Of a DNA stretch of 64,000 bases, positions 10,143 through 61,546 are shown piece by piece. Location: sequence record MN882349.1, one strand, 5' to 3'. Position 1 is the stretch's first letter, and each line of letters starts with the position of its first letter. The DNA comes from Escherichia phage Ec_Makalu_003. A program made the translations under genes and the position numbers. Below the pieces are notes generated by a model. It did no database searches, was not told the origin of the DNA, and saw only the letters and a program-made list of their open reading frames with translations.

Positions 10143-10170
10143 TTGACAATCTTGTCTGATAAGGTATAAT
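10143..10170 (+). promoter_or_regulatory. sigma70-type early promoter (TTGACA-16-TATAAT)
   Basis: TTGACA 10143-10148 and TATAAT 10165-10170, 30 nt upstream of the ATG at 10200 with SD GGAGGA. Confidence 0.65.
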
Positions 10171-48754: not shown

Positions 48755-49575
48755 TTAGTCACCTCACCGAAAATTGTAAATTGTCTACGATTCTCATCGC
48801 CGAAAGATTCTACTACGTCGTTTACCTTGATGCAAGTCCCGCGCGGTAAAATTACTTCACATTCGCAAGGATTCCATGCAATAGACCCAACAACAAAACC
48901 TTTATGATCTTTTACGTCAATTACCCATGATACATTACAAGAATGTTGCATCTTTCCGGTCATTGATTCATATCGATTCTCACAATAAAGGCTAGTGCTG
49001 TTTGAAAGCCATCCTCCAAAGATGATCGGTGTCATGCTGGTCGATACAAAGTTTTTAAAGGTAAATTCCTTATCTTCAATAATACGCTCTATTGTCTGAA
49101 TGTCAAGATGTTGACCGCGATAAAGAGTACCGTTTAACTTTTCGGTTTTATCCATGACACAATCCATCAAATCGACAATCTCTGATATCTCATCGGTCAT
49201 GTCTTCTTCCCCTAAGAGAGCACCATTTACCCATTCGTATTGTTCAGACACATAATCGCAGATTGCATTATATTCTGCTGGGGTTATGTTGTTATGTTTG
49301 TAATGTTTGAATACATTATCTCCAAAATCTTCGGAATGTACTTCATACATCACATTAATGATTTTCTTGACAAATCCATAATCTTGCGTTTCTCGCTCAA
49401 GGAAACGGATAACTTTCACGTAATCATCAAAGTTAATATGATCGCTGATCATTTCAGTGATCATGTAACCATTAATCCCCTCAATGCCATATGTTTCGAT
49501 GTAATTATCCATACGTTCCATCATTGATTCGCGTGATTCTTCGGAAAGGCGAAAATCCTGTAATTTCTTGAACAT
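48751..49575 (-). CDS. ADP-ribosyltransferase, Alt-like paralog
   Basis: 274 aa; R-S-E motifs (LYRGQ, FVSTSMTPIIFGGW, ECEVILPRG) parallel those in the Alt C-terminus. Confidence 0.7.
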   Translation of the reverse strand: MFKKLQDFRLSEESRESMMERMDNYIETYGIEGINGYMITEMISDHINFDDYVKVIRFLERETQDYGFVKKIINVMYEVHSEDFGDNVFKHYKHNNITPAEYNAICDYVSEQYEWVNGALLGEEDMTDEISEIVDLMDCVMDKTEKLNGTLYRGQHLDIQTIERIIEDKEFTFKNFVSTSMTPIIFGGWLSNSTSLYCENRYESMTGKMQHSCNVSWVIDVKDHKGFVVGSIAWNPCECEVILPRGTCIKVNDVVESFGDENRRQFTIFGEVTK

Positions 49576-49593
49576 TTTAAATCTCCCATATAA

Positions 49594-49628
49594 CAGAAAA
49601 CGGGGCTAGTATAAAACTAGTCCCCGTT
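49594..49628 (-). terminator. terminator-like hairpin after alt (minus strand)
   Basis: Imperfect hairpin AACGGGGACTAGTTTTATACTAGCCCCGTT followed by TTTTCTG on the minus strand. Confidence 0.5.
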
Positions 49629-49653
49629 TGAGTCAACCATTATTTCTTAAAAA

Positions 49654-51705
49654 TTACATTTTAAATTTATCCGGCATAGCGTCTACAGACACAAGATCAG
49701 CGATAAGCTGACGTAGAGTTGCCTTATCTGCTTTCTTACGTTCGGTTTTAGCTTCGGTAATGAAGCTGGAGAAAGACAGGTCAGAAGCAGGTTTAACAAC
49801 ACCTTCACGGATGAATGCATCACCGTCCGCGATCATCTCACCAGATTCTTGTAATGCTGCCAGTTCATTTTTGTTCATAATATGTGCCTCAATGTAATAA
49901 GTTTCTTGTGAATCCGTCGATGCCGTAGCACGAGTTACCGTATCAAAGGATAACACAACACCGCGAGGAAGTAAAATCTCGCATTCTTTGTAAGCAAATG
50001 CTTTGTTACCTACTGGCAATACAGGGATGTTTTCCGCGCCAGCAATGGAGAAAGCAACATTAGCGCCACCTTCACCGCGAGATCCAGCCATAGAATCAAC
50101 ACCAGCAACGGCACTAGCCACGTTTGCATTCCATCCACCAAAAATATTAGGTGCAAGGGAAGTGCTCACATAGTTTTTAAAGTAAAACGCTTTTTGCTTA
50201 CGTGCAGTTTCCCACATTTGAGAACGGAAGTCCATACCACGATACAAGATAGTACCTGGATCAAGTTTAACACCATAGTTAGCAAATGCGTTATCCAGTG
50301 CATCACACATCTTGACCAATTCTTCTGGGTCTGCGATGCCTTCAAACTCTTCCAGCTTACGGTCGGTTAGGAAGTTGTTCATATTGATGTATGCTGCATC
50401 CGCATATTCGCTCAACACAAAACCTTCCGCGCCAGGCAGATCAAGATCAATATCTGCCATCATTTCACCCATGTTGCTAGCAATTGCTTCAAACATACCG
50501 GAAGCAACATTACGCAGGGCATCGGTTTTAATCTGCGTGATGTGACTACGCAGCATTTCAGCTTTTACATCTGCTGGCATAGACTGGTCGACGCGATCCA
50601 TTGCCAGGGCGGTGATCTTGTTTTCGAATACTTCCTCGCTCATGATTTCTTTTAAGCGTTTGATTGATGCTGCGATAACTTCCGCAGACAACGGATCATA
50701 TTGATCCTGAACTTTTACCAGTTCGCTTACTGCATATTTTGCATCGGCTTCGCTTTCAAAAATAGTACGCATGAAACCATAGCGAGTGATAATATCACTT
50801 GTCCAGTCATTCAGAGAACGGGCGGTTGAACGTTCTAAGGCTTGACGGTCAATCAGAGTATTAAACTGTTTCTTAGGTTCTGCTTCGGTGATATCTTCTT
50901 CCGGTTTAAGATTAATTTTTTCTGGATGATTCACATAGTCGCTGTTATAGGTCGCTTGAGTTTTCAGCATTTCTTCTTTAGTCAAACGAGATTTAGCCGC
51001 TACGCGTTGTTCTGCTTCCGCGTTTCGTTCTTCTTCCGACACAAGACTAGCCGCATACGCCTCATCTTTAGTCAGAGATTCACCAGTAGCCTTAGATACC
51101 CAGCGATCACCTAAATCACTTTCTACTTTAGTGAACAGGGATTCATCGAGTTTAATCCCTTTAATCTTATCAATCGCCATCCCGCGACGTTTGACAACAA
51201 CTAAAGCGATCTTTTTGCTGGTCATTACTTCCTGCTGGAATACTTCAAACTTCGGTGTACGACGCACCAAACGCTCTATAACGCGCTTAACCAGTTCGGT
51301 CTTACCTTTCATGCGGGATACGTTAAAACGGAACATAACAGCGTCTAATTGCGCTTTACGGGCTGTTTCCATGACCACATCAAAAGCACTTGACATAACT
51401 GCAATCGGGTTATCTCCTAGACCATTTTTAAGCTGTACAATACGACCGCTTTTGTTCATTTCGCACAGTACAACATGTGCGGTCTTGTCACCCATACGAA
51501 TGATTTTAGGTGTTTTGTTGGTGAAGTTACAAAGACGGACAATCACATCTTTATCGCGTGTCTGTACTGCAAAAAGCTGTTTAGGATTCTGCTTAGGCTT
51601 TAAGCACTGTACCGGAGCAATACTGCCAAAGTTTTCTTCCTCTTCCGTCAACAGCCATTTCTCGAAAGATTCAATCATTAGATCGTCGATTTCTAAGTTA
51701 AACAT
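49654..51705 (-). CDS. alt: ADP-ribosyltransferase Alt
   Basis: 683 aa (T4 Alt 682 aa); C-terminal domain with ILYRGMD, NYVSTSLAPNIFGGW, ECEILLPRG. Confidence 0.85.
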   Translation of the reverse strand: MFNLEIDDLMIESFEKWLLTEEEENFGSIAPVQCLKPKQNPKQLFAVQTRDKDVIVRLCNFTNKTPKIIRMGDKTAHVVLCEMNKSGRIVQLKNGLGDNPIAVMSSAFDVVMETARKAQLDAVMFRFNVSRMKGKTELVKRVIERLVRRTPKFEVFQQEVMTSKKIALVVVKRRGMAIDKIKGIKLDESLFTKVESDLGDRWVSKATGESLTKDEAYAASLVSEEERNAEAEQRVAAKSRLTKEEMLKTQATYNSDYVNHPEKINLKPEEDITEAEPKKQFNTLIDRQALERSTARSLNDWTSDIITRYGFMRTIFESEADAKYAVSELVKVQDQYDPLSAEVIAASIKRLKEIMSEEVFENKITALAMDRVDQSMPADVKAEMLRSHITQIKTDALRNVASGMFEAIASNMGEMMADIDLDLPGAEGFVLSEYADAAYINMNNFLTDRKLEEFEGIADPEELVKMCDALDNAFANYGVKLDPGTILYRGMDFRSQMWETARKQKAFYFKNYVSTSLAPNIFGGWNANVASAVAGVDSMAGSRGEGGANVAFSIAGAENIPVLPVGNKAFAYKECEILLPRGVVLSFDTVTRATASTDSQETYYIEAHIMNKNELAALQESGEMIADGDAFIREGVVKPASDLSFSSFITEAKTERKKADKATLRQLIADLVSVDAMPDKFKM

Positions 51706-51746
51706 TTTATATCCTCTAGTTGATAACCTATAAACCTATATTTATG

Positions 51747-51771
51747 AAAAAGGGGCTTAACACCCCCATTT
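51747..51771 (-). terminator. rho-independent terminator (minus strand)
   Basis: Hairpin GGGGGTGTTAAGCCCC followed by TTTTT on the minus strand. Confidence 0.6.
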
Positions 51772-51772
51772 A

Positions 51773-51985
51773 TTATAATGCACCATCGAGCAATTGCTCT
51801 AAGGTGTATCCTGAATAGTCTTTTTCAATCAGGATATATTTTCCTACTCGTTTAATACAACCGCGCATTTCAACGTATTCTGCGTAGTTGATGGTGCGAG
51901 TTGTTCCATCTTCTAGTAAAGCAGTACCGATTTCGTTAATGCGGTCATAAGTTACGTCGGTAATGATGATTTCGATGTTAGCCAT
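51773..51985 (-). CDS. hypothetical protein
   Basis: 70 aa; starts MANIE, sharing its first 15 nt with the ORF at 54109-54360; preceded by promoter cassette C1. Confidence 0.55.
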   Translation of the reverse strand: MANIEIIITDVTYDRINEIGTALLEDGTTRTINYAEYVEMRGCIKRVGKYILIEKDYSGYTLEQLLDGAL

Positions 51986-52021
51986 TTGATACTCCTTAGT
52001 AGTTCGTTTCGGTATGGGTGT

Positions 52022-52050
52022 ATTATGATATACACCCTCTGTTATGTCAA
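52022..52050 (-). promoter_or_regulatory. repeated early promoter cassette C1 (TTGACA-17-CATAAT)
   Basis: Minus-strand -35 TTGACA, 17-nt spacer, -10 CATAAT; inverted repeat GGGTGTAT/ATACACCC spans the -10; conserved leader and AGGAG SD. Confidence 0.6.
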
Positions 52051-52056
52051 CAACTT

Positions 52057-52236
52057 TTAGAACATTTTTGAAATTAATTCTGCTTTGATTTCGCAGAGAA
52101 CATCTAAAGATTTCTCGTCACCCGCTTTTGCTGCTTCTGCTTGCATTTTTGAAATGGCTTCAATGTCAGTGCAATTATAAGCCGCTTGAACTTTAGCGAT
52201 TGCGATGATTGCCGATTCGATGGTTAAGTGTTTCAT
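52057..52236 (-). CDS. hypothetical small protein (59 aa)
   Basis: Minus-strand ORF preceded by cassette C2 with SD AGGAG; below track cut-off. Confidence 0.5.
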   Translation of the reverse strand: MKHLTIESAIIAIAKVQAAYNCTDIEAISKMQAEAAKAGDEKSLDVLCEIKAELISKMF

Positions 52237-52268
52237 GTTTGATTCTCCTTTCGTTTCGGTATGTGTGC

Positions 52269-52297
52269 AGTATAGGGGATCGCCGATCCCCTGTCAA
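52269..52297 (-). promoter_or_regulatory. repeated early promoter cassette C2 (TTGACA-17-TATACT)
   Basis: The 17-nt spacer is the perfect palindrome GGGGATCGGCGATCCCC; same cassette as C10. Confidence 0.6.
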
Positions 52298-52304
52298 CAA
52301 CTTT

Positions 52305-52823
52305 TTAGTTATTTTTTAATTGCTCATCTTGCAATAATGCAATCACATGCTGGCGATGTTCTTCCGATTGAGGAACACCGAAAAAGTTTGTTTTGTAGAA
52401 ATACTCTAATCGGTCTTCTCGTGTGCTCTCTTCCATCATGATCGCGGGTAGTCCAAGATTTCGGAAACGTCGCTTTTCTGCTGGCGTAAAATCACTGTAA
52501 TACAACATAGAATCATCATTACCAGCAATGCTAAACTCATCCTTCATAAAGGAGAATATTGCGTTTAAACGCTGTTTACCGTCCACGATTTCGATCTCAT
52601 AGCGAGAGCCATCATCAATCTTAGCCATTGCGATAGCACCAACCGGAAAATCATTAATCAGGTTTTCGATAAACATACGTTTGTTTTCGGTGTCCCATAC
52701 CAAAGGACGCTGATAATCTGGGTTCATGTTGATATAGCCATCTTCTAACCACGCCTCATAAACAGAGATGACAAAGTTTTTAGTATTGGTATAGTAACGG
52801 CGTTTAGGCGTTAAACGGTTCAT
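52305..52823 (-). CDS. DUF262-like (ParB/Srx-fold) protein
   Basis: 172 aa from ATG 52823 (SD AGGAG); DYQRPLVW and VDGKQRL resemble the DUF262 N-terminal motifs (DGQQR type); last gene of a five-gene operon. Confidence 0.55.
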   Translation of the reverse strand: MNRLTPKRRYYTNTKNFVISVYEAWLEDGYINMNPDYQRPLVWDTENKRMFIENLINDFPVGAIAMAKIDDGSRYEIEIVDGKQRLNAIFSFMKDEFSIAGNDDSMLYYSDFTPAEKRRFRNLGLPAIMMEESTREDRLEYFYKTNFFGVPQSEEHRQHVIALLQDEQLKNN

Positions 52824-52824
52824 G

Positions 52825-53157
52825 TTATAGTCTCCTGAATGGATCATCACGTAAATCAATATCTTTTAAGAACTCATCCCATGAATGGCGGATAATGTTC
52901 TTAATTCTCCAGATAAGCGCAGGGATTGAACGCTCTCCCATCTGGAAGTAAGGATCATATGATCCATATGCCCAATATGCTACTACAATTCCACAATCGG
53001 CGCAATAATATTCTATTTCACTTGCTGGCGACCAAAGTCCATCAATATGATCACGGATCTTGCTTTCGATGTTATGGCTATGGCAATCAGGGCAACGGAT
53101 GCAATGACCTTGTTTATCGTAATTTGACGTTAGCGAATACTTAAACAATCTCATCAT
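52825..53157 (-). CDS. zinc-ribbon protein
   Basis: 110 aa; CIRCPDC ... CADCG (CxxC...CxxC); start overlaps upstream stop. Confidence 0.55.
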   Translation of the reverse strand: MMRLFKYSLTSNYDKQGHCIRCPDCHSHNIESKIRDHIDGLWSPASEIEYYCADCGIVVAYWAYGSYDPYFQMGERSIPALIWRIKNIIRHSWDEFLKDIDLRDDPFRRL

Positions 53158-53870
53158 AGATCCTTATTGGCTTCAAATACTGCCTTTGCGAATCCTCGCG
53201 GGGTAAGTGACCTGATAGTCTTTGTTCTGGTTCCTTTCCCGCCTAGCTTAGAATGCTGTTTACTGTACCCTTTATTAATCTGCAACGGTTTCTTTTCTGG
53301 CATTATAAAGCCTTGTCCGGTCCATAAGCAAGTCTTTTTCGGGTACATATCACGGGCGGCAATATACTCAGGAAACGTAGGATGCTTATCATCTTCCGGC
53401 AAATAACCGCCATATTCCCACGGATGGAACATGTAATCAGGCTTACGCCACATGCTAGAGATAACGCTTACAGGATTCTCTATCATGTAGGGAACTCCTA
53501 GCCATTCACCCAAATAAGCGGTTATTTTAGCTGCCCTTACATCATGAACTTGAATTAATGGTCCTTGTTCTCGTTTCTTTCGTTCAAAGTGCGCAGCGCC
53601 ACTAACAGCTAAATTGGTGCATGGTGGGAATGCAAAGATAATATCCGGTTTCCCCCATTCAAGGTCCATTGCTCTTTCCAGCCAATTTAAATCAATCCAT
53701 GTGTTTACATATGTAATGTTTGGATGTTCAAATCTGGTATTATATTTTTTGTATGTACCGTGGTCGCCATCGTCAGCATTAAAGCAGATCACCTTATGAC
53801 CTGCTTTAGCCCATTCTAACCCCATTATCCCCGATCCGTCAAAGTTGCAGAATATTAATTTTTGTTTCAT
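53154..53870 (-). CDS. C5-cytosine DNA methyltransferase-like protein (compact)
   Basis: 238 aa; motif I-like LIFCNFDGSGIMGLEWAKAGHKVICFNADD, motif IV-like IIFAFPPCTNLAVSG (Pro-Cys), motif VI-like MIENP; region after motif VI too short for a typical target-recognition domain. Confidence 0.55.
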   Translation of the reverse strand: MKQKLIFCNFDGSGIMGLEWAKAGHKVICFNADDGDHGTYKKYNTRFEHPNITYVNTWIDLNWLERAMDLEWGKPDIIFAFPPCTNLAVSGAAHFERKKREQGPLIQVHDVRAAKITAYLGEWLGVPYMIENPVSVISSMWRKPDYMFHPWEYGGYLPEDDKHPTFPEYIAARDMYPKKTCLWTGQGFIMPEKKPLQINKGYSKQHSKLGGKGTRTKTIRSLTPRGFAKAVFEANKDL

Positions 53871-54112
53871 ATACGCCCCTTTAACCCAACACAGATTTTA
53901 GAAGGTTCTTTGCCGTGCCACATTAAGTAAATTCCGTTAATGCGTCCTTGTTTTGTATATGATTCTTTTCTGATCTTCTTATAGTGTCGTGCTTCCTCAG
54001 CCGATTGTTTAGAATGTCGATCATAAAGGAAGAGGAACAAAGGCCAACCATTAGCGGCCTTAATGCAGTTATTCAAAAATTCCTTATTTCGTTTAATTAA
54101 TTTTCTTTTCAC
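53867..54112 (-). CDS. hypothetical basic protein
   Basis: 81 aa; GTG start overlapping the upstream stop; Lys/Arg-rich. Confidence 0.45.
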   Translation of the reverse strand: MKRKLIKRNKEFLNNCIKAANGWPLFLFLYDRHSKQSAEEARHYKKIRKESYTKQGRINGIYLMWHGKEPSKICVGLKGRI

Positions 54113-54360
54113 GCTGCCCCCATTGGTTTGATAGTAACAGAATCTAAAAGACCTTTGTTAGCCAGTTCGCGGCAAGTTTTCAGATCCGCAACTTCCCAGC
54201 CAGCCGCAATAAGGTTATCAATGAGGCTGTTAGCAACTTCTTCGCTCATGAAAGAGCACTGTTTGCCGATGGTGTAGCGTACACGCTGTAATTTCAGTTT
54301 ACGGAAGCCTTTAACGTTCAGGTCTTTAGCGATTTTCTTTGCGGTTTCGATGTTAGCCAT
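54109..54360 (-). CDS. hypothetical protein
   Basis: 83 aa; starts MANIE; first gene after cassette C3. Confidence 0.55.
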   Translation of the reverse strand: MANIETAKKIAKDLNVKGFRKLKLQRVRYTIGKQCSFMSEEVANSLIDNLIAAGWEVADLKTCRELANKGLLDSVTIKPMGAA

Positions 54361-54400
54361 TGTTTGATTCTCCTAAGTGGTATCTCGTCTTGATGGTTGT

Positions 54401-54429
54401 ATTGTAGGGGAGTTATCCTCCCCTGTCAA
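54401..54429 (-). promoter_or_regulatory. repeated early promoter cassette C3 (TTGACA-17-TACAAT)
   Basis: Spacer is the palindrome GGGGAGGATAACTCCCC; SD AGGAG downstream. Confidence 0.6.
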
Positions 54430-54443
54430 CACTTTTTATAAAA

Positions 54444-54611
54444 TTATTTGTTAATTTCTGGTGCGTTGCTAGGATAGTAACCTTCTTTAACTCCGAGGTA
54501 TTTTGCAACCATCCCTACAATCTTCTGTGCTACTACAATGTCAAATTTCAGATAATCTTCGCCGTGGGTTTCAATGATATATGCTTCACATGCTGCTTTA
54601 GTCTCGAACAT
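54444..54611 (-). CDS. hypothetical small protein (55 aa), paralog of 57726-57893
   Basis: MFETKAACEAYIIETHGEDYLKFDIVVAQKIVGMVAKYLGVKEGYYPSNAPEINK; near-identical to the ORF at 57726-57893. Confidence 0.55.
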   Translation of the reverse strand: MFETKAACEAYIIETHGEDYLKFDIVVAQKIVGMVAKYLGVKEGYYPSNAPEINK

Positions 54612-54644
54612 TTTGATTCTCCTATTTCGTTTCGGTATGTGTGT

Positions 54645-54673
54645 ATTATAGGGGATCTCCCGATCCCCGTCAA
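54645..54673 (-). promoter_or_regulatory. repeated early promoter cassette C4 (TTGACG-17-TATAAT)
   Basis: Palindromic spacer GGGATCGGGAGATCCCC; SD AGGAG downstream. Confidence 0.6.
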
Positions 54674-54687
54674 CAACTTTTTTAAAA

Positions 54688-54969
54688 TTATTCGTGATTA
54701 GTTTCGATATTGTGCATTTTGCACCAGTTCAGCCAATCGCCAAGATCTTGATAGTTGATGCTTTTATCTGCTGCCATCGTTTTTGTCTTGATACCCATAT
54801 GTGCGTTATGAGTAAGCATTTTTACAGTGAACTCAATTTTATCGCCTTTAGCTTTAACATCAACCAGTTTGGTCCACTGGCTACCAGCACCGCGAATGTT
54901 CATACCAACGATGTTTCCGATGTATGCTTCTTTGTTGTTCAGGATTTCGGTTGCTTTGATGAATTTCAT
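54688..54969 (-). CDS. hypothetical protein
   Basis: 93 aa; preceded by cassette C5. Confidence 0.55.
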   Translation of the reverse strand: MKFIKATEILNNKEAYIGNIVGMNIRGAGSQWTKLVDVKAKGDKIEFTVKMLTHNAHMGIKTKTMAADKSINYQDLGDWLNWCKMHNIETNHE

Positions 54970-55002
54970 TTTTGATTCTCCAGTTCGTTTCGGTATGGGT
55001 GT

Positions 55003-55031
55003 ATTATGCTATGTTCTTACTTTGGTGTCAA
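55003..55031 (-). promoter_or_regulatory. repeated early promoter cassette C5 (TTGACA-17-CATAAT)
   Basis: Same -35/-10/leader/SD architecture as C1; no palindrome in the spacer. Confidence 0.55.
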
Positions 55032-55039
55032 CAACTTTT

Positions 55040-55309
55040 TTAGATATTTTCAGAAATAAATTTTAAAACTTGACGTAAATGTTTCTCATCTTTGATAGTC
55101 GCCGGAAGTTCTTCTTTTACTTCCTGTGCAAGATAGATATTTCCGTTCCAAGTGAAAGACCCGTCTTCGTTTACGCGATAGCTGAACATCCATTCGCAAT
55201 CATTTTCGATTTCATATACACACAGAAGGGTGTAATCTTCAAAGCTATTGATTTCAAGGTCGAAGCCGTGGCGTTTTGCAAAGTTGGTAGTGGTTTTAGT
55301 CAGTGCCAT
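55040..55309 (-). CDS. hypothetical protein
   Basis: 89 aa; preceded by cassette C6. Confidence 0.55.
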   Translation of the reverse strand: MALTKTTTNFAKRHGFDLEINSFEDYTLLCVYEIENDCEWMFSYRVNEDGSFTWNGNIYLAQEVKEELPATIKDEKHLRQVLKFISENI

Positions 55310-55348
55310 TGTTTGATTCTCCTAAGTGGTATCTCGTTTCGATGGGTG

Positions 55349-55377
55349 TATTATGCTATAGGCGTGATCAGGTGTCA
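55349..55377 (-). promoter_or_regulatory. repeated early promoter cassette C6 (TTGACA-17-CATAAT)
   Basis: Same architecture; immediately downstream of the terminator at 55403-55428. Confidence 0.55.
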
Positions 55378-55402
55378 ATGCCTTTTTTAAAATTTTATGC
55401 AA

Positions 55403-55428
55403 TAAAAAAGCCGACACTAAGGTCGGCT
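55403..55428 (-). terminator. rho-independent terminator (minus strand)
   Basis: Hairpin AGCCGACCTTAGTGTCGGCT followed by TTTTTT on the minus strand. Confidence 0.65.
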
Positions 55429-55435
55429 AATAAAA

Positions 55436-55744
55436 TCATTTAGACAAATAATCATTCAGTGCAATCCGGTCGGCATGTTCCGGCGTTACATCAATCGCAA
55501 TCACTTTAACGCGTGCTTTCTTGCGACCTGGGTTTTCTCGTAACCAGTGCTCATGACCGTGAACATTTTTATACTGCGATGCTTCTTCGAAGGTACGGAT
55601 CGGACCAGGGTAATCAGCGTAAAGGATCTCTAGGTCATCGGTGATGTAAAAATATACGTTGTAATTACTGTTCTCTAGCTTAAGCAGAGACTTTCGGAAC
55701 ATTGGGAGATTTTCGCGGGTAAATTCAAAAGTAATATCTTTCAT
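55436..55744 (-). CDS. HxHW-motif small protein family member
   Basis: 102 aa from ATG 55744 (SD GAGGAT); YFYITDDLEILYADY ... HGHEHWL ... VKVIAIDV. Confidence 0.55.
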   Translation of the reverse strand: MKDITFEFTRENLPMFRKSLLKLENSNYNVYFYITDDLEILYADYPGPIRTFEEASQYKNVHGHEHWLRENPGRKKARVKVIAIDVTPEHADRIALNDYLSK

Positions 55745-55766
55745 AGTATTATCCTCAATAGTTGGA

Positions 55767-55788
55767 TGAAAAGGGGGCTTAACGCCCC
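55767..55788 (-). terminator. terminator-like hairpin (minus strand)
   Basis: Hairpin GGGGCGTTAAGCCCCC followed by TTTTC on the minus strand. Confidence 0.5.
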
Positions 55789-55793
55789 ATATA

Positions 55794-56081
55794 TTAAAAC
55801 AGTCCTTCCTGTACACCGTAGTAGAGTTCGTCGCTGATAATTTCATTAATGCGACGGTGTGCATATTCCTGATTTGCGAAGTTGTCAGCAAGTTCTACTT
55901 TAGTTTCACCGTCATGAGTCCATTTAGTGATAACTTTACCATCTGCAAATTTGAAGTTGAACTCTTTAGCTACTGCATCGCGTACCAGACGTGCGAACTT
56001 GTTGTTACGGATTGCATTATCGGTTTCGTGTGCAGCGTGAGCAAATTTGTTAACTTTCAGAGTGATAGTGATGTATGCCAT
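55794..56081 (-). CDS. hypothetical protein
   Basis: 95 aa; preceded by cassette C7. Confidence 0.55.
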   Translation of the reverse strand: MAYITITLKVNKFAHAAHETDNAIRNNKFARLVRDAVAKEFNFKFADGKVITKWTHDGETKVELADNFANQEYAHRRINEIISDELYYGVQEGLF

Positions 56082-56127
56082 AATTTGATTCTCCTAGTTA
56101 GAAAGTGTATCTCGTTTCGATGGGTGT

Positions 56128-56156
56128 ATTATGCTATACACCCGATCTTATGTCAA
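56128..56156 (-). promoter_or_regulatory. repeated early promoter cassette C7 (TTGACA-17-CATAAT)
   Basis: Inverted repeat GGGTGTAT/ATACACCC spans the -10, as in C1. Confidence 0.6.
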
Positions 56157-56163
56157 CACTTTT

Positions 56164-56442
56164 TTATAAAATAATTTTTTGATATTTTTCTATGATGTTT
56201 GTGTAATCCACATCAACCGCTATCACCGTTGCTTCGAATCCACCGTTTAGCCAATGGCTATGGTCATGATCGTGAAAGAAACCAAGACCAGTACGAAGAC
56301 CTTCTTTATATTCGGCGCGTACATTTAGATCATCATCGATAAACAGATAAAACCATGAATTTTTACTAGGATTGATGATACAACCTTTCAGATTAGGGAG
56401 AATATCACGACTAAGAATAAACTTATCACCTACTTTGAACAT
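56164..56442 (-). CDS. HxHW-motif small protein family member
   Basis: 92 aa from ATG 56442 (SD GAGGA); WFYLFIDDDLNVRAEY ... HDHDHSHWL ... VIAVDV. Confidence 0.55.
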   Translation of the reverse strand: MFKVGDKFILSRDILPNLKGCIINPSKNSWFYLFIDDDLNVRAEYKEGLRTGLGFFHDHDHSHWLNGGFEATVIAVDVDYTNIIEKYQKIIL

Positions 56443-56446
56443 AATA

Positions 56447-56767
56447 TTAGTCCTCACTTATAAGGTCAAACCAATTGTTTTTCGCATAATGCTTAATGCG
56501 TGCTTGATCTGCTTCCGCTGGTGATAGATTCCATGCAACCACTACAACTTCTGACGCGTCGTCATCCGTTTCTGATACCCAATGATTGTGATTCATACAG
56601 TTATTTGCGATCGAGTGAGCAAATGATTTCATCACTGGAGACGTATAATCATAGTAACGGATTTTCAGATTTTCATCAACATACAAGTAGATCGTATAAG
56701 GTTTATATTCAGTAACCAGTAACAGACAGTTACGCAATTCTGGGAAAATCTTTTTAGTTAATTTCAT
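56447..56767 (-). CDS. HxHW-motif small protein family member
   Basis: 106 aa from ATG 56767; YTIYLYVDENLKIRYYDY ... HNHW ... VVVVAW. Confidence 0.5.
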   Translation of the reverse strand: MKLTKKIFPELRNCLLLVTEYKPYTIYLYVDENLKIRYYDYTSPVMKSFAHSIANNCMNHNHWVSETDDDASEVVVVAWNLSPAEADQARIKHYAKNNWFDLISED

Positions 56768-56768
56768 T

Positions 56769-56987
56769 TTATAATCCTCGGTCGCGGCTATAGTACACGG
56801 TACGCCATACAATTTCATGTTTCGTGTCGCTCCAGCACACGATCTCATTTACTCTTAAATCTTTGTTATCAACAAAAGATGAACATTGTGACGCTTCTTT
56901 CATCATTTTATCTGCTGTTTTCTCATCAAATACAGCACAGATTTCTTTATACACTCGATAATCTTTGAATTGACTCTGGATACCCAT
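56769..56987 (-). CDS. hypothetical protein, tandem paralog of 56947-57204
   Basis: About 72 aa; SQFKDYRVYKEICAVFDEKTADKMMKEASQCSSF parallels the upstream ORF; start uncertain (56987 or 56999). Confidence 0.45.
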   Translation of the reverse strand: MGIQSQFKDYRVYKEICAVFDEKTADKMMKEASQCSSFVDNKDLRVNEIVCWSDTKHEIVWRTVYYSRDRGL

Positions 56988-57204
56988 AATTAACACCATT
57001 CCAACCAATTGTTTTTGAGAAAACGTTTATCCACTGTTGAGTGTAGCATGTTTCTTTCCATGATACAATACGAGTAGAATAATGGTTTTTGTTTCCAGAA
57101 AAGGACGGGCATTTTGATGCATCTTCCATCATCTTTTCGGCGAACTCCGCGTCATATACCCGCAGGATCTGTTGATATGCTTTATAATCTTTAAATTTGC
57201 TCAT
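56947..57204 (-). CDS. hypothetical protein, tandem paralog of 56769-56987
   Basis: 85 aa; MSKFKDYKAYQQILRVYDAEFAEKMMEDASKCPSF. Confidence 0.5.
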   Translation of the reverse strand: MSKFKDYKAYQQILRVYDAEFAEKMMEDASKCPSFSGNKNHYSTRIVSWKETCYTQQWINVFSKTIGWNGVNYGYPESIQRLSSV

Positions 57205-57469
57205 AATTGTTAACTACCTTATCAGCTTCTTTTATTGTTTTTACATCAACTGCGATAATCCGTAAAGGTTCGTCGAAGGTCCACCAGTGGTCATGAATAT
57301 CAGCTTGTGATTTATCACCAAAGGAATCACGAATATCATTTTTACATTTATAGCTAATATGGCCTTCATAGTCAACATAAAGGTAATTATCGAAAATCGG
57401 AGTTTTTAAGATCATACCGAAAAATCTTTCTTTGTGTGTCTTATCAAGTGTTGCAGTAATTCGCATCAT
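57191..57469 (-). CDS. HxHW-motif small protein family member
   Basis: 92 aa; SD GAGGA; NYLYVDYEGHISY ... HDHWW ... RIIAVDV. Confidence 0.55.
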   Translation of the reverse strand: MMRITATLDKTHKERFFGMILKTPIFDNYLYVDYEGHISYKCKNDIRDSFGDKSQADIHDHWWTFDEPLRIIAVDVKTIKEADKVVNNYEQI

Positions 57470-57481
57470 AATATATTCCTC

Positions 57482-57661
57482 TTAGAAAGGGATGGTCATT
57501 TCTTGAGCTTGTACATTCTCGTTAGGATTAAACTTCATCCAACCGATATTGTCTACCAGCATATGTACATTTTTATCATATCCTACGTGAGTAGTCAACA
57601 CTAAATGTGCTTTACCTTCAACGATGATTTCCATGTACTTCTGAACTTCGATAGCTTTCAT
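57482..57661 (-). CDS. hypothetical small protein (59 aa)
   Basis: Minus-strand ORF directly downstream of cassette C8; below track cut-off. Confidence 0.45.
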   Translation of the reverse strand: MKAIEVQKYMEIIVEGKAHLVLTTHVGYDKNVHMLVDNIGWMKFNPNENVQAQEMTIPF

Positions 57662-57693
57662 TTTGATTCTCCGTTTGTTGTCTTGATGGGAGT

Positions 57694-57722
57694 ATCTTAC
57701 TACTCCCTTTAATCATTGTCAA
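57694..57722 (-). promoter_or_regulatory. repeated early promoter cassette C8 (TTGACA-17-TAAGAT, weak -10)
   Basis: Inverted repeat GGGAGTA/TACTCCC overlaps the -10 region. Confidence 0.45.
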
Positions 57723-57725
57723 CTA

Positions 57726-57893
57726 TTATTTGTTAATTTCTGGTGCGTTGCTCGGATAGTAACCTTCTTTAACACCCAGATATTTTGCAACCATTCCGGT
57801 GATCTTCTGTGCTACTACGATATCGAATTTCAGGTAGTCTTCACCGTGGTTTGCTACAATGTATGCTTCGCATTCTGCTTTAGTCTGGAACAT
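57726..57893 (-). CDS. hypothetical small protein (55 aa), paralog of 54444-54611
   Basis: MFQTKAECEAYIVANHGEDYLKFDIVVAQKITGMVAKYLGVKEGYYPSNAPEINK; the track start at 57929 extends into the promoter cassette. Confidence 0.55.
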   Translation of the reverse strand: MFQTKAECEAYIVANHGEDYLKFDIVVAQKITGMVAKYLGVKEGYYPSNAPEINK

Positions 57894-57927
57894 TTTTGAT
57901 TCTCCTATATCTCGTTGGTATGTGTGC

Positions 57928-57956
57928 ATTATAGGGGATCACCGATCCCCTGTCAA
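57928..57956 (-). promoter_or_regulatory. repeated early promoter cassette C9 (TTGACA-17-TATAAT)
   Basis: Palindromic spacer GGGGATCGGTGATCCCC. Confidence 0.6.
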
Positions 57957-57961
57957 CAACT

Positions 57962-58255
57962 TTATAATGCTTTATACGCGTATTTCATAAATTTGTCTGC
58001 CACTTCATTGGCATGTTCAGATTCTACGCCTGATTCGAGAACAATAGCTAGGTCGGTTTCGTCATTCCCGCCGTACCAATGATTTGATGTTCGATTTTTT
58101 TCAATTGGAAATTGGTCACTTTTATCTGTGCGACAAAATACATCTAAATGCTCGTCGATGTAAAAGATCCAATCTTCATAAAGAATAACGGTATTAGCAA
58201 GATTTTTATTGCCTTCAACGAAAGGTTCCGCGACAAATAGCTTAGTTTGTTCCAT
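57962..58255 (-). CDS. HxHW-motif small protein family member (divergent)
   Basis: 97 aa from ATG 58255 (SD GAGGAA); ILYEDWIFYIDEHLDVF ... SNHWYGG ... LAIVLESG. Confidence 0.5.
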   Translation of the reverse strand: MEQTKLFVAEPFVEGNKNLANTVILYEDWIFYIDEHLDVFCRTDKSDQFPIEKNRTSNHWYGGNDETDLAIVLESGVESEHANEVADKFMKYAYKAL

Positions 58256-58271
58256 AGTAATTTCCTCAAAA

Positions 58272-58463
58272 TTATACAGTTTCGTAAACTTCCCAATGTT
58301 CAGCGCCAACACGCTTAACGAAAAGGTTTTCTTTGATGTTATTCATAAACGTCTGGATGGATTTAATGCGGTTTGAAGGTTTCCATTCTTCGTTGGCATT
58401 GCGTCGATACATCATAACATTACCAGTTCGCTTATATTCAGCAACCATTTTAAGACCACACAT
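58272..58463 (-). CDS. hypothetical protein
   Basis: 63 aa; SD GAGGA. Confidence 0.5.
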   Translation of the reverse strand: MCGLKMVAEYKRTGNVMMYRRNANEEWKPSNRIKSIQTFMNNIKENLFVKRVGAEHWEVYETV

Positions 58464-58520
58464 AATATTATCCTCAATTTGTGGGAGAGTATTACCCCTC
58501 CCAATGATTGTTATGTTATA

Positions 58521-58841
58521 TCACACAAAATGGCGTGTCAATGCTTCTTTTGCGGTTCCGCTAAGACTTTCAATCTCGCCTGGCATAACATCAACCGCCA
58601 GAACTTCTACAACATCTTCGGACCCTAACCAGTGAGTATGGCCTTTGTAGAACTTGATAACCAGACCACCTTCCTCGTCCCATTTAACGCTATCGCTAGC
58701 CCACCACACATCACCGTCGATAAAGTTGATGTAAAGCACACTACGCCACATTGAATTAATTACTTTCAATACTGCGCCTTTCATCTCTTCCACGGTATGG
58801 TCTTCCATTTTGAAGACCTCACCTACCTGAACTTTTGCCAT
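58521..58841 (-). CDS. HxHW-motif small protein family member
   Basis: 106 aa; VLYINFIDGDVWWASD ... HTHWL ... VLAVDV. Confidence 0.55.
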   Translation of the reverse strand: MAKVQVGEVFKMEDHTVEEMKGAVLKVINSMWRSVLYINFIDGDVWWASDSVKWDEEGGLVIKFYKGHTHWLGSEDVVEVLAVDVMPGEIESLSGTAKEALTRHFV

Positions 58842-58858
58842 TTAGTCACCTCTCTTTA

Positions 58859-59038
58859 TTACATAACAATCACGCCAGCCGTTGAAAGTTGATGTTTCAA
58901 CTGAGCATTTTCTGCTACTGTCAAATCAATGATTTCTTGTGACGCTGCAATCATATAACCATTGGTGATATTGTTTTGCATCAGTTCAATGGTTTCTTCG
59001 TTGTAGCGGATTTTAGCGATGATTTCGTTGAAGTTCAT
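58859..59038 (-). CDS. hypothetical small protein (59 aa)
   Basis: MNFNEIIAKIRYNEETIELMQNN...; preceded by cassette C10; the track start at 59104 extends into the promoter. Confidence 0.5.
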   Translation of the reverse strand: MNFNEIIAKIRYNEETIELMQNNITNGYMIAASQEIIDLTVAENAQLKHQLSTAGVIVM

Positions 59039-59072
59039 AATTGATTCTCCTAGTTCGTTTCGGTATGTGTGC

Positions 59073-59101
59073 AGTATAGGGGATCGCCGATCCCCTGTCA
59101 A
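59073..59101 (-). promoter_or_regulatory. repeated early promoter cassette C10 (TTGACA-17-TATACT)
   Basis: Spacer GGGGATCGGCGATCCCC identical to C2; begins right after the HNH gene stop. Confidence 0.6.
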
Positions 59102-59114
59102 CAACTTTTTTGAA

Positions 59115-59591
59115 TTATTTTTCTTGATGCTCGCGCTCGTACTTTTCGAAATAAAATTCTACTGGCTGATCGTGGATTGAAAGCAAGCCAAAGCGTTTAG
59201 CCGCACGTAATCCCATGTTACGTTGAATGTACTTCTGGAAGTTCTCGCGTATACACTTACGCCAGTATTCTAAGCCCATACAGCTTTTGTAAAGATTGCA
59301 TTGCACACAAGCCGGATTCATGTTGTCAAGTATATCGTGCTCCGGTTTATGCATTCCTACAACCTTATACTTCCACGATCCATCATCATTACGGGCAATT
59401 CGTCCATTTTCATCATAGACTACTTTTGAGCGTCGCAATACTGGTTTGATGTGGTCTGCGTGCCAGCGATCCCCTAGTTCCTCGCCACAATAGGCACAAC
59501 GCCCACCGTATTTCATTTTCAGGATCTGGCGTTGCTCTTTCTTTGACAATTTTTTAGGTTTAGGGGCTTTCGCCCCTTCATTATCACACAT
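59115..59591 (-). CDS. HNH endonuclease
   Basis: 158 aa; CAYCGEEL ... WHADHIKPV ... NMNPACVQCN; start overlaps the 3' end of DNA ligase gene 30. Confidence 0.75.
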   Translation of the reverse strand: MCDNEGAKAPKPKKLSKKEQRQILKMKYGGRCAYCGEELGDRWHADHIKPVLRRSKVVYDENGRIARNDDGSWKYKVVGMHKPEHDILDNMNPACVQCNLYKSCMGLEYWRKCIRENFQKYIQRNMGLRAAKRFGLLSIHDQPVEFYFEKYEREHQEK

Positions 59592-61080: not shown

Positions 61081-61546
61081 TTTCACCTCGTTTTGTTAAA
61101 CGTTCACGAATATCATTTAGGATACTACAAAATTCCGATTCGGTCAATATGGTCTTTAACGGATCAGTTCCACCTATGCTATGACGCAATTTCTTATTTC
61201 CGGTAGCGAGCAATGCTTTACAAAAATCTGGGTTATTTCGTGCCATCGTAACAAATGCCAGATGTACCAGTCTGTAATAATGCTCACTCATTCGATGAAT
61301 CGGGCGACCCTGAAAATATAGCATGTGATTCTCTATCTTTTCAGTCCTTCCGGTTCTTTTTGCTTTGCAGCCGTGCATCAAAAAGATTTCTCTTTGTCTC
61401 TGAGGGTTCTTAAATCTTAGCCCCTGTAAAAATCCTTCTGTGCTGTTAATATCGCAACCAAATAGACGGAATGGCCTTTTATTGAAATTACTCAACTCGC
61501 CAGATGGATAAGGTCCACCCGCATAGATATCAATTTCAGAAGTCAT
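61067..61546 (-). CDS. NADAR (YbiA-like) domain protein
   Basis: 159 aa; LSNF, INSTEGFLQGLRF, AKRTGR, CKALLATGNKKL...ILNDIRERL parallel the YbiA/NADAR pattern (FSNF, TSEHYFQAQKF, GR, ALLLAT...). Confidence 0.6.
   Translation of the reverse strand: MTSEIDIYAGGPYPSGELSNFNKRPFRLFGCDINSTEGFLQGLRFKNPQRQREIFLMHGCKAKRTGRTEKIENHMLYFQGRPIHRMSEHYYRLVHLAFVTMARNNPDFCKALLATGNKKLRHSIGGTDPLKTILTESEFCSILNDIRERLTKRGENVNS

Follow-up and report, generated by a model that had tools for sequence, protein, structure and literature searches.

The promoter-early stem-loops (PeSLs) of T4-type phages are said to go back to the work of Arbiol, Comeau, Kutateladze, Adamia and Krisch (2010, Genome Biol Evol 2:140), which was reportedly extended by Comeau et al. 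2014. At the locus equivalent to the one considered here, PeSLs were described and partly tested in the close relatives RB49 and phi1, for which about 50 PeSL-type elements per genome were reported (Arbiol et al. 2010, PMC2839356). The stem-loop usually lies between the -35 and -10 hexamers or overlaps the -10 (PMC2839356). Promoter strength, the terminator activity of one spacer stem-loop, the mini-circles and the RB49 early 5' ends are taken from this literature and not from our own analysis. In uninfected E. coli the spacer-palindrome element PeSL206/205 showed very strong promoter activity (about 13,000 Miller units), the spacer-type stem-loop of PeSL211/210 lowered lacZ expression to an extent comparable with rrnB T1, and mini-circles were reported at ORFan192 and ORFan210 (PMC2839356). 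The RB49 early promoter consensus fits mapped 5' ends (PMC1524935).

T4 early promoters are also of the sigma-70 type, with an A-rich UP-like element and Alt-modified RNA polymerase, and they share with RB49-type promoters recognition by host sigma-70, an A-rich tract at about -40 to -44 and a place upstream of small early genes whose function is unassigned (PMC1524935). They differ in the -35, which is TTGACA in the RB49 type and GTTTAC-like in T4, and in that the RB49 type has an embedded stem-loop and a common leader and Shine-Dalgarno block, which makes the entire intergenic region a repeat. Intrinsic (Rho-independent) terminators resemble PeSLs in closing a transcription unit with a G/C-rich nascent-RNA hairpin, and one PeSL stem-loop acted as a strong terminator in a reporter (PMC2839356). 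Integron cassettes are likewise small, mostly single-gene modules bounded by sites with imperfect inverted repeats, and circle excision followed by reinsertion has been proposed for PeSLs too, from their mini-circles. The PeSL array, in contrast, has no integrase and no attC/attI architecture, apparently exchanges its parts by general homologous recombination within the 70-100 bp that its cassettes share, and is made of cassettes with a promoter each, which integron cassettes usually lack.

The locus and its relatives

The window, a stretch of 64,000 nucleotides from Escherichia phage Ec_Makalu_003 (MN882349.1), is Krischvirus DNA, from an RB49-like T4-type coliphage. Among 63 matching phage records (best match 99.5%), 58 are Krischvirus-type Escherichia/Shigella phages and the other five are short Salmonella-phage matches inside a methyltransferase gene. 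The hyperplastic region (51773..59114, minus strand) is bounded by alt (49654-51705) and by the HNH (ORF212; 59115-59591) and ligase (gp30; 59584-61086) genes, all named from annotation in relatives, and holds 23 small early genes, orthologs of RB49/phi1 ORF185-209, together with ten PeSL cassettes. An earlier sequence-only reading had counted 23 small minus-strand ORFs between these flanks and called the region hyperplastic; we reproduced the count (51773-59038), and the hyperplastic character is borne out by relatives that span just 49-100% of the region. The sequence-only reading had named such small early genes as candidates for host-takeover or anti-defence functions. In a Pfam scan of 20 of the 23 proteins (all except ORFs 205, 208 and 209), only ORF187 (GmrSD_N) and ORF188 (a weak, sub-threshold zinc-ribbon) gave matches; for ORF189 there is a PHROG match, to a DNA methyltransferase family.

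The region corresponds gene for gene to RB49 ORF185c-212c and phi1 ORF185-212, and is the ortholog of the type locus of PeSLs. The repeated promoter and hairpin cassettes are genuine, and they are PeSL elements already described; the earlier observation was correct, not new. In the GenBank record of GEC-3S the cassette sites are already annotated as promoters, and a search for transcript data for the window's phage found none. The resemblance to PeSLs had been recognized in the sequence-only reading, but the contrast it drew from the palindrome inside the spacer is unfounded, since the paper that defined PeSLs already gives a stem-loop between the -35 and -10, or on the -10, as the most frequent layout (PMC2839356). 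Like the PeSLs of RB49 and phi1, the cassettes combine an AT-rich tract that includes the upstream stop codon, consensus sigma-70 -35 and -10 hexamers, a G-then-C-rich stem-loop between these or over the -10, and a Shine-Dalgarno site with ATG; they stand upstream of hyperplastic-region ORFans, are chimeric at indel junctions and are orthologs of the named PeSLs 186/185 to 210/209. The window differs in having no ORF192 (like phi1), no ORF195/196 and no ORFan210/ORF211, in a single chimeric PeSL from ORF209 to the HNH gene, and in slight loop and stem variants.

Anatomy of the ten cassettes

All ten cassettes are intergenic, lie on the minus strand and run from an A-rich tract through TTGAC(A/G), a 17-nt spacer, a -10, a leader and GGAG(A/T)ATCAA to ATG, which agrees with the earlier proposal of such an arrangement in at least ten gaps; the -35, 17-bp spacing, -10, Shine-Dalgarno site and ATG are intact in 10/10. 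From C1 to C10 the -35 hexamers start at 52050, 52297, 54429, 54673, 55031, 55378, 56156, 57722, 57956 and 59101. The -10 hexamers TATACT, TATAAT and CATAAT were found as first read, with two more types, TACAAT (C3) and TAAGAT (C8). The nine occurrences of the Shine-Dalgarno block GGAGAATCAA in the 64-kb window are all minus-strand and all fall within 52248-59050; in C1 the block is replaced by GGAGTATCAA. A leader that had been called conserved is present throughout as related sequence, but the exact form ATACCGAAACGA is confined to five of the ten. The occurrence of these promoters is not random: at 51700-59200, nine minus-strand and no plus-strand sites agree with the sigma-70 consensus in at least 11 of its 12 positions, against a mean of 0.2 and a maximum of 3 in 500 dinucleotide shuffles, which supports their reading as early promoter/5'UTR modules.

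A G/C-rich hairpin is found in eight of the ten cassettes, inside the spacer in five and across the -10 in three, and there is none in the promoters of C5 and C6. The eight fold at -12 to -19 kcal/mol (z-scores -2.0 to -4.7). The 380 nt of promoter cores hold eight distinct perfect hairpins of at least 7 bp, compared with about 36 in the remaining 63.6 kb; the cassettes being paralogs, these counts are not of independent events.

GGGGATC-GGC-GATCCCC fills the spacer of C2 (PeSL187/186; 52237..52304; -35 52292-52297; -10 TATACT 52269-52274), where it forms the hairpin (A)GGGGATC-ggc-GATCCCC(T) at 52274-52292 (z -2.6), and that of C10 (59039..59114; hairpin 59078-59096), the chimeric PeSL in the gap between ORF209 and HNH ORF212. 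Variants are GGGGAG-gataa-CTCCCC at 54406-54424 (-19.4 kcal/mol, z -4.7) in C3 (PeSL191/190; 54361..54443; -35 54424-54429; -10 TACAAT 54401-54406), GGGGATC-ggga-GATCCCC at 54651-54668 in C4 (the PeSL upstream of ORF191; 54612..54687; -35 TTGACG 54668-54673; -10 TATAAT 54645-54650) and GGGGATC-ggt-GATCCCC at 57933-57951 in C9 (PeSL206/205; 57894..57961; -35 57951-57956; -10 TATAAT 57928-57933), which has a 12/12 consensus promoter and is identical to RB49 PeSL206/205 across the 77 nt compared. The earlier placing of the palindrome in C2 and C10 and of its variants in C3, C4 and C9 holds, but the 17-mers are inverted repeats with an asymmetric loop of 3-5 nt rather than perfect palindromes.

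The inverted repeats that had been seen to span the -10 in other cassettes are those of C1, C7 and C8. GGGTGTAT pairs with ATACACCC at 52016-52037 (z -2.2) in C1 (PeSL186/185; 51986..52056; -35 52045-52050; -10 CATAAT 52022-52027) and at 56122-56143 in C7 (PeSL199/198; 56082..56163; -35 56151-56156; -10 CATAAT 56128-56133), and GGGAGTA with TACTCCC at 57688-57707 (z -3.7) in C8 (PeSL205/204; 57662..57725; -35 57717-57722; -10 TAAGAT 57694-57699). C5 (PeSL194/193; 54970..55039) has promoter, leader and Shine-Dalgarno site without a stem-loop (z +0.26), which is also missing in all nine compared genomes having C5, and C6 (the PeSL upstream of ORF194; 55310..55435; -35 55373-55378) is likewise a promoter without a hairpin.

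Transcription and the hairpins

We consider it highly probable that the region is the PeSL array of a Krischvirus hyperplastic region, in which the cassettes serve as expression modules, with their hairpins, and as recombination substrates. Each cassette would be a self-contained expression module, its A-rich UP-like tract overlapping the stop codon of the upstream gene and its near-consensus sigma-70 promoter, with 17-bp spacer, probably fired by unmodified host RNA polymerase straight after infection. We infer a start site at the conserved A after CCC, from which an unstructured leader of roughly 30 nt would lead to a strong Shine-Dalgarno site (GGAG) lying 5-7 nt ahead of the ATG. The G/C-rich inverted repeat would then lie wholly upstream of the cassette's own start, the -10-spanning type ending at -1, so that the hairpin should fold only in read-through RNA from upstream or in single-stranded DNA. 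Its most likely role is to attenuate or end transcription arriving from upstream, insulating each small unit. We infer termination by all eight hairpins; insulation would not be universal, because C5 has neither hairpin nor terminator.

The published terminator activity comes from one reporter construct with one element that is missing from the window, RB49 PeSL211/210 (GGGGATcacgtATCCCC). Unlike intrinsic terminators, the eight PeSL hairpins all lack a U-tract behind them, having UAUAAU/UAUACU or AUACCG/AUCGAA as their tails, and a sense-strand terminator scan called no PeSL hairpin. It called three canonical terminators in the region, which are separate elements on the minus strand: one at 51751..51767 after ORF185, AGCCGAC..GTCGGCT with T6 at 55409-55428 just upstream of C6, and GGGGC-gttaa-GCCCC with a T-run at 55774..55788 after ORF198. 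Of the two cassettes that have no hairpin, only C6 comes after a multi-kb unit, and a canonical terminator is present there instead, pointing to termination as the function under selection.

The hairpins might alternatively be RNA 3'-end stabilisers or processing signals (exonuclease barriers, or sites for RNase III or another endonuclease) with read-through continuing, a reading we think unlikely though by no means far-fetched. It would suit hairpins that have no U-tracts, that stand at the upstream message's 3' end and are no part of the transcript made from the cassette itself, and that tolerate G.U variants on the sense strand (three in the GGGGATC-type spacer stems, with no A.C variant); hairpin-caused cleavage or decay of the fusion RNA would also be expected to lower lacZ. 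The published effect, however, was comparable with rrnB T1 and was read as termination (PMC2839356), and the true terminator upstream of C6 again argues for the latter. Pairing itself is kept by compensatory changes at PeSL199/198, where the C7 orthologs of RB49, phi1 and GEC-3S have GGGGATAT/ATATCCCC (two compensatory pair changes), and between GGGGATC-type and GGGGAG-type stems. Formal covariation is weak: the numbers of double-change pairs, one and two, were also reached in 116 and 32 of 500 shuffles, respectively.

Recombination between cassettes

In ten other genomes (91-99% overall identity) the ten cassettes are kept at orthologous positions wherever the segment is retained, and they are present in 58 phage records, with ORFs inserted or deleted between them. 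Chimeric cassettes mark the junctions where ORF186 is deleted in Cognac, ORF191 in UPWr_E1 and ORF193-204 in FL04 and Cognac (with different crossover points), and where ORF210 is missing in the window, UPWr_E1 and Makalu_002; they show that the cassettes act as recombination substrates, and a recombination site was among the suggestions of the sequence-only reading. The insertions of ORF192, ORF195/196 and ORF210/211 are located at cassette edges: the upstream edge of C4 bears ORF192 in both RB49 and G2494, and another ORF in JSE, and segment 55331-55427 of C6 is duplicated around ORF195/196 in RB49, KMB43 and UPWr_E1. At C10, where ORFan210 and ORF211 are missing, the 5' flank matches phi1 PeSL212/210 and the leader and Shine-Dalgarno site match PeSL210/209. 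The 70-100 bp common to the cassettes would thus be a substrate for homologous recombination that removes, adds or exchanges the ORFan(s) lying between a pair of cassettes, with a chimeric cassette such as C10 as the product. Roughly 6 of about 15 structural events (about 40% of indels) lie away from PeSLs (ORF189.1, the 56200-56985 replacement, 58839/58841, ORF207 twice, 52820/52823), and with a PeSL at 10 of 23 gene boundaries the enrichment of events over gene boundaries is modest.

It is improbable that the palindromes act as DNA, whether as structure-dependent recombination hotspots (hairpin or cruciform extrusion with endonuclease VII-type cleavage or template switching) or through supercoiling- or Dam-dependent promoter strength. 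Each GGGGATC..GATCCCC spacer does hold two GATC sites, and 10 of the region's 37 fall in 170 nt of spacers, but paralogous cassettes inherit these sites from one another, and GATC exceeds expectation window-wide (O/E about 1.5). GGT and ACC loops, reverse complements of each other in orthologs, have the signature of hairpin-loop inversion; this pair is the single case, and GGC, ATC and GGGA loops are never inverted. With 6-8 bp, the stems are short for extruding a cruciform. Crossovers fall in varied sub-segments: Cognac has one in the leader and, at ORF191/205, one in the gene 5' end, and that of UPWr_E1 is in the -10/discriminator. Such a scatter fits general homologous recombination.

The sequence-only reading had preferred an operator or recombination site to a terminator; with an operator, a dimeric phage or host protein would bind GGGGATC-N3-GATCCCC and repress or time the early promoters. 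An inverted repeat exactly between -35 and -10 is in the classic operator position, and the GGGGATC..GATCCCC version, of which the window has four copies, is well kept among relatives. We nevertheless regard an operator as very unlikely because palindrome sequence and loop length vary between cassettes and orthologs. Several unrelated stem sequences occupy equivalent positions among the relatives compared, at least five of them at the same or an overlapping position (GGGGATC, GGGGAT, GGGGAG, GGGTGTAT/GGGGATAT and GGGAGTA); loop length, hence half-site spacing, ranges from 3 to 6 nt; stem type is swapped among phages in orthologous cassettes, for example GGGGATC..GATCCCC for GGGGAG..CTCCCC upstream of ORF209; and the repeat lies across the -10 in three cassettes and is missing from two. 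In the 20 local proteins scanned, Pfam gave no DNA-binding domain but the one weak zinc-ribbon match. One PeSL with a spacer palindrome works as a very strong promoter in E. coli that is not infected, and the spacer-type stem-loop of PeSL211/210 by itself reduces downstream lacZ as rrnB T1 does (PMC2839356).

A single recent local duplication without selected function, to which paralogous cassettes and four nearly identical spacer palindromes might point, can practically be dismissed given the conservation across genomes described above, the intact promoter and translation signals of every cassette and the reported abundance of such elements in RB49 and phi1 (PMC2839356).

Related elements occur beside the ten on the minus strand. 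A degenerate eleventh, PeSL208/207-like (58464..58541; TTGACA-17-TAACAT; RBS ATTGAGGATAATATTATG), is kept in relatives, has its -35 within the 3' end of ORF208 and carries a hairpin, GGGAG..CTCCC (58483-58502), that sits 3' of the -10. Downstream of alt, just outside the interval first reported, a PeSL-type element (49575..49653; TTGACT-17-TATACT) has the hairpin ACGGGGACTAG/CTAGCCCCGT over its -10, followed by TTTT. The terminator after ORF185 is followed by CATAAATAT, a late-promoter-like motif before alt.

The cassette array and its type locus

Twenty-three short genes (55-238 aa) lie on the minus strand between alt (49654-51705) and the HNH and ligase genes (59115-59591 and 59584-61086), as read from the sequence of 51800-59400 and the ORF list, and ten of the intergenic gaps among them carry copies of one promoter and leader cassette. 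The -35 hexamers of these cassettes, numbered C1 to C10 by rising coordinate, start at 52050, 52297, 54429, 54673, 55031, 55378, 56156, 57722, 57956 and 59101 (minus strand). The spacer is 17 nt long in all ten, and all ten carry GGAG(A/T)ATCAA 0-3 nt before the ATG. The 20 nt 5' of each -35 are 75-90% A+T and hold a run of five or six A residues together with the stop codon of the preceding gene. Nine sites have at least 11 of the 12 sigma-70 consensus positions, against a mean of 0.2 and a maximum of 3 in 500 dinucleotide-preserving shuffles, and the plus strand of the same region has no site at this threshold. Furthermore, the 64-kb window holds nine copies of the decamer GGAGAATCAA, all of them on the minus strand, within the region and preceding an ATG; C1 carries GGAGTATCAA in its place.

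These features are shared with the promoter-early stem-loops (PeSLs) that Arbiol et al. 2010 defined in phages RB49 and phi1, chiefly from this hyperplastic region, and whose parts are an AT-rich tract with an upstream stop codon, a consensus sigma-70 promoter, a stem-loop, and a Shine-Dalgarno sequence with start codon (PMC2839356). In the window, the 17-nt-spaced promoter, the AT-rich tract with its stop codon, the Shine-Dalgarno sequence and the ATG are joined by a stem-loop in eight of the ten cassettes, by a hyperplastic location upstream of ORFans, by orthology to RB49 and phi1, and by chimeric cassettes at indels. The window is collinear with the annotated loci ORF185c-212c of RB49 and ORF185-212 of phi1, and its cassette sequences are near-identical to theirs; C9 corresponds to RB49 PeSL206/205 (named by the flanking ORFs), with no difference over the 77 nt compared in a cassette table of eleven genomes. 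The sequence-only reading that preceded this analysis described the array accurately and was right to liken the cassettes to PeSLs, and the array is an already known feature at its type locus. That reading also held that a palindrome within the promoter spacer sets the cassettes apart from PeSLs, which is unfounded: the spacer palindrome belongs to the PeSL definition, in which a stem-loop of polyG then polyC lies most commonly between -35 and -10 or overlaps the -10, according to a figure legend (PMC2839356).

About 52 PeSLs are present per genome in RB49 and phi1, and PeSL206/205 yielded ~13,000 Miller units, with promoter-down mutations in most clones (PMC2839356). RB49 early promoters have an A-rich tract at -40 to -44 and prefer C at -3 to -1 (Nolan et al. 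2006, PMC1524935), a preference that fits the CCC|A junction present in the window cassettes. Desplats 2002, cited in PMC1524935, mapped the 5' ends of RB49 early transcripts, and the GenBank record of GEC-3S already annotates the same sites as promoters with -35 and -10 signals. A literature search yielded no useful transcriptome of a Krischvirus.

Matches to the region come from 63 phage records, comprising 58 Krischvirus (RB49-like) coliphages or Shigella phages and five Salmonella phages whose matches are short and lie within the methyltransferase gene. The best match, at 99.5%, is Ec_Makalu_001, and coverage of the region in relatives ranges from 49 to 100%. A single recent duplication without conservation in related phages is not what we find, as C10 alone matches 58 Krischvirus-type records, and only these, in 384 places. 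The exact spacer-palindrome pattern occurs in IMG/VR in just two contigs, both of Krischvirus size. Neither the C10 BLAST nor the IMG/VR pattern search gave evidence of transfer of the cassette between genera, and the cassette is confined to the genus.

Near-consensus sigma-70 promoters also occur elsewhere in the window, at 10143 (+), 36171 (-), 35600 (-), 37802 (+) and 63244 (-). Some of them directly follow hairpin-plus-T-run terminators, forming a terminator-promoter composite. The GGAGAATCAA leader block, which is specific to the hyperplastic region, is missing from these promoters.

Recombination at PeSLs

When 49600-61100 was compared with ten relatives by BLAST and the cassette table of eleven genomes was added, about 15 structural events emerged, about six of which are not at PeSLs. 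Among those at cassettes, the upstream edge of C4 (-35 at 54673) is the site of an insertion, ORF192 in RB49 and G2494 and another ORF in JSE, and C6 (-35 at 55378) is the site of an ORF195/196 insertion with a duplicate of 55331-55427. At C10 (59101), ORF210 with or without ORF211 is present in 8/10 of the relatives compared and missing from the window, UPWr_E1 and Makalu_002. ORF186 is lost in Cognac and ORF191 in UPWr_E1, and 3-kb deletions have removed ORF193-204 from both FL04 and Cognac, with crossover points that differ between the two phages. Both of these last deletions stem from recombination between two paralogous modules, C4/ORF191 and C9/ORF205. The events away from cassettes are an ORF189.1 deletion, a replacement of 56200-56985, insertions at 58839/58841 and 52820/52823, and the replacement or deletion of ORF207.

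Because PeSLs make up ~11% of the region and account for ~60% of the events, their enrichment by sequence length is large; measured against gene boundaries, 10/23 of which carry a PeSL, it is modest. The case for recombination therefore rests on the sequences of chimeric junctions, not on counts. In alignments, a Cognac cassette combines the 5' half of C2 with the Shine-Dalgarno sequence of C1, the crossover lying in ATACCGAAACGA; a UPWr_E1 cassette joins the 5' half of C4 to the leader of C3; and C10 of the window itself joins the 5' flank of phi1 PeSL212/210 to the leader of PeSL210/209. FL04 also carries a chimeric cassette. Inverse PCR had previously detected circles of ORFan192 and ORFan210 with chimeric PeSLs at their bounds (PMC2839356), and the window, with a chimeric C10 and no ORF210, is thus the genomic counterpart of the ORFan210 mini-circle reported in 2010. 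It shows the deletion topology only, complementary to the mini-circles.

What is new here is small: additional natural PeSL-mediated deletions in newer genomes, confirmatory in kind and including the loss of ORFan210, and a possible loop inversion. As a model of how T4-type phages can reshuffle small accessory genes without losing their expression, PeSLs are attractive.

Hairpins in the promoter core

The palindromes that the sequence-only reading had noticed are seen at eight cassettes. A G-then-C-rich inverted repeat fills the spacer in C2, C3, C4, C9 and C10, and an inverted repeat extends across the -10 in C1, C7 and C8. C5 has no hairpin, and C6 has a promoter without one, preceded just upstream by a canonical terminator (55409-55428) in its AT-rich part, an arrangement that corresponds to another published PeSL subclass (PMC2839356). 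The eight hairpins have predicted folding energies of -12 to -19 kcal/mol, with z-scores of -2.0 to -4.7, and distinct perfect hairpins of at least 7 bp number eight in the 380 nt of promoter cores versus ~36 in the remaining 63.6 kb. An Rfam scan of 49000-61500 gave nothing relevant, its single match being a sub-threshold snoRNA.

The stems themselves are diverse. At least five unrelated ones occupy the promoter core (GGGGATC/GATCCCC, GGGGAG/CTCCCC, GGGGAT/ATCCCC, GGGTGTAT/ATACACCC and GGGAGTA/TACTCCC), with loops of 3-6 nt, and the C7 ortholog in RB49, phi1 and GEC-3S has GGGGATAT/ATATCCCC in place of GGGTGTAT/ATACACCC. Stem type is also swapped between orthologous cassettes of different phages: upstream of ORF209, the window has GGGGATCggcGATCCCC, RB49 has an acc loop, and JSE, KMB43, G2494, FL04 and Cognac have GGGGAGgttaaaCTCCCC. 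Such diversity and swapping count against there being one operator and in favor of selection for pairing. Covariation is weak, as supporting evidence only, since the one and two double-change pairs in two gapless alignments were equalled by 116/500 and 32/500 shuffles. We also considered whether G.U pairs on the sense strand, found in three variants (GGGGGTC..GATCCCC in RB49, phi1 and Makalu_002), signal a role at the RNA level, given that A.C variants number zero in GGGGATC-type stems in the cassette comparison. All three represent one A-to-G change, and with so few independent events we set the asymmetry aside as anecdotal.

In the type that spans the -10, the last base of the 3' arm is at -1 relative to the inferred start, so the transcript of the cassette itself contains no hairpin. 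Folding is possible in just two settings, single-stranded DNA and RNA that reads through from the unit upstream. An intrinsic terminator is a G/C-rich hairpin followed immediately by a U-rich tract, and none of the eight PeSL hairpins has such a tract (their tails are TATAAT/TATACT or ATACCG/ATCGAA). A terminator scan of the sense strand likewise called 0/8 of them, while calling canonical terminators at 51751-51767, 55409-55428 and 55774-55788. The terminator role therefore rests on one published reporter result, in which the stem-loop of PeSL211/210 cut lacZ expression to a level comparable with that given by rrnB T1 (PMC2839356). PeSL211/210 is absent from the window; its spacer in RB49 is GGGGATcacgtATCCCC, a type common to C2, C4, C9 and C10 of the window. 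Insulation as the selected function fits the hairpin-less C6 with its preceding true terminator. A live alternative is that the hairpins act as RNA 3'-end stabilisers or processing sites for the upstream message. These results raise the question of how transcripts arriving from upstream are halted or processed by a hairpin that lacks a U-tract and sits in a promoter spacer.

The palindromes might also fold in DNA, as hairpins or cruciforms during replication or under supercoiling, and PeSLs may on that account be structure-driven recombination hotspots, cut by a junction resolvase or prone to template switching, instead of passive stretches of homology. We regard this as improbable, although there are two hints in its favor, a published crossover inside a loop and a difference in loop orientation between orthologous cassettes. 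C9 (57933-57951) and its orthologs differ by GGT versus ACC between identical arms, as do the ORF186, ORF209 and ORF210 cassettes. GGT and ACC are reverse complements, as expected of hairpin-loop inversion, which is thus a possible origin of the difference; GGC, ATC and GGGA loops were never inverted among the cassettes compared. If folding at the DNA level did occur, paired GATC sites would make early promoters stronger or weaker according to how far the genome is methylated or replicated. Ten of the 37 GATC sites in the region fall inside spacers. We rejected a Dam-related role for them, as they are inherited among paralogs, GATC is over-represented throughout the window, and they give no independent signal. 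Across the whole window, GATC occurs 389 times (233-267 expected), GGCC is far rarer than expected (29 copies against ~110) and CTAG is also scarce (102 against 140-233).

The proposal that the spacer palindrome points to an operator rather than a terminator is poorly supported, and we reject it on the diversity of stems, the variation in loop length and published assays (PMC2839356): an operator calls for one conserved sequence with fixed half-site spacing, and the stem repeats here occupy two different positions. In a Pfam scan of 20 local proteins, the one candidate DNA-binding domain is a zinc-ribbon that ORF188 matches weakly (E 4e-4, below cut-off).

Returning to insulation, directly after the terminator that follows ORF185 (51751-51767), and in front of alt, comes CATAAATAT, a sequence similar to the T4-type late promoter TATAAATA (51706-51772, minus strand). 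This arrangement would fit an early unit insulated from a late gene. In all ten cassettes, GGAG forms the Shine-Dalgarno core (for example, 59047-59050). The RegB endoribonuclease of T4-type phages cuts GGAG in early mRNAs, and RB49 regB has diverged (PMC3014915); by analogy, the common GGAG could double as a RegB shut-off target.

The small genes

In the 20 proteins scanned, the only Pfam hits are the GmrSD_N/DUF262 domain of ORF187 (E 4e-20) and the sub-threshold zinc-ribbon of ORF188. Those products of genes directly 3' of the ten cassettes that were scanned match no Pfam family and, among PHROGs, only families of unknown function. ORF189 matches a DNA methyltransferase family of PHROG, and its counterparts in relatives are annotated as C-5 cytosine methylases; the remaining proteins compared with PHROGs match only those of unknown function. 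ORF187 (52305-52823, minus strand) is a 172-aa protein consisting of the ParB-like GmrSD_N/DUF262 domain only, without the C-terminal nuclease domain of GmrSD-type restriction enzymes, and it adjoins ORF188 and ORF189.

Three paralog families are present among the small proteins. The first comprises six divergent proteins of 92-106 aa, encoded on the minus strand at 55436-55744, 56164-56442, 56447-56767, 57191-57469, 57962-58255 and 58521-58841, which share an invariant H-W (H.HW in most) and a C-terminal (I/V)AVDV and belong to no Pfam family. phmmer connects ORF197, ORF199, ORF200 and ORF208 (E 1e-13 to 1e-5), while ORF203 and ORF206 join them by the HW...(I/V)AVDV motif alone. ORF191 (54444-54611) and ORF205 (57726-57893) form the second family (E 5e-34), with 86% identity at the DNA level over 172 nt that take in their cassettes, and this pair is the crossover site of the FL04 and Cognac deletions. 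The third consists of ORF201 and ORF202 (56769-56987 and 56947-57204; E 5e-16).

A second conserved block for translation initiation, (A/T)TTGAGGA(T/A)AAT(A/T)(C/T)TATG, precedes ORF197 (55742-55759), ORF206 (58253-58270) and ORF207 (58461-58478). At ORF197 and ORF207 it lies just 3' of a hairpin, without a strong sigma-70 promoter, and the deletion of ORF207 in UPWr_E1 fuses two blocks of this second type.
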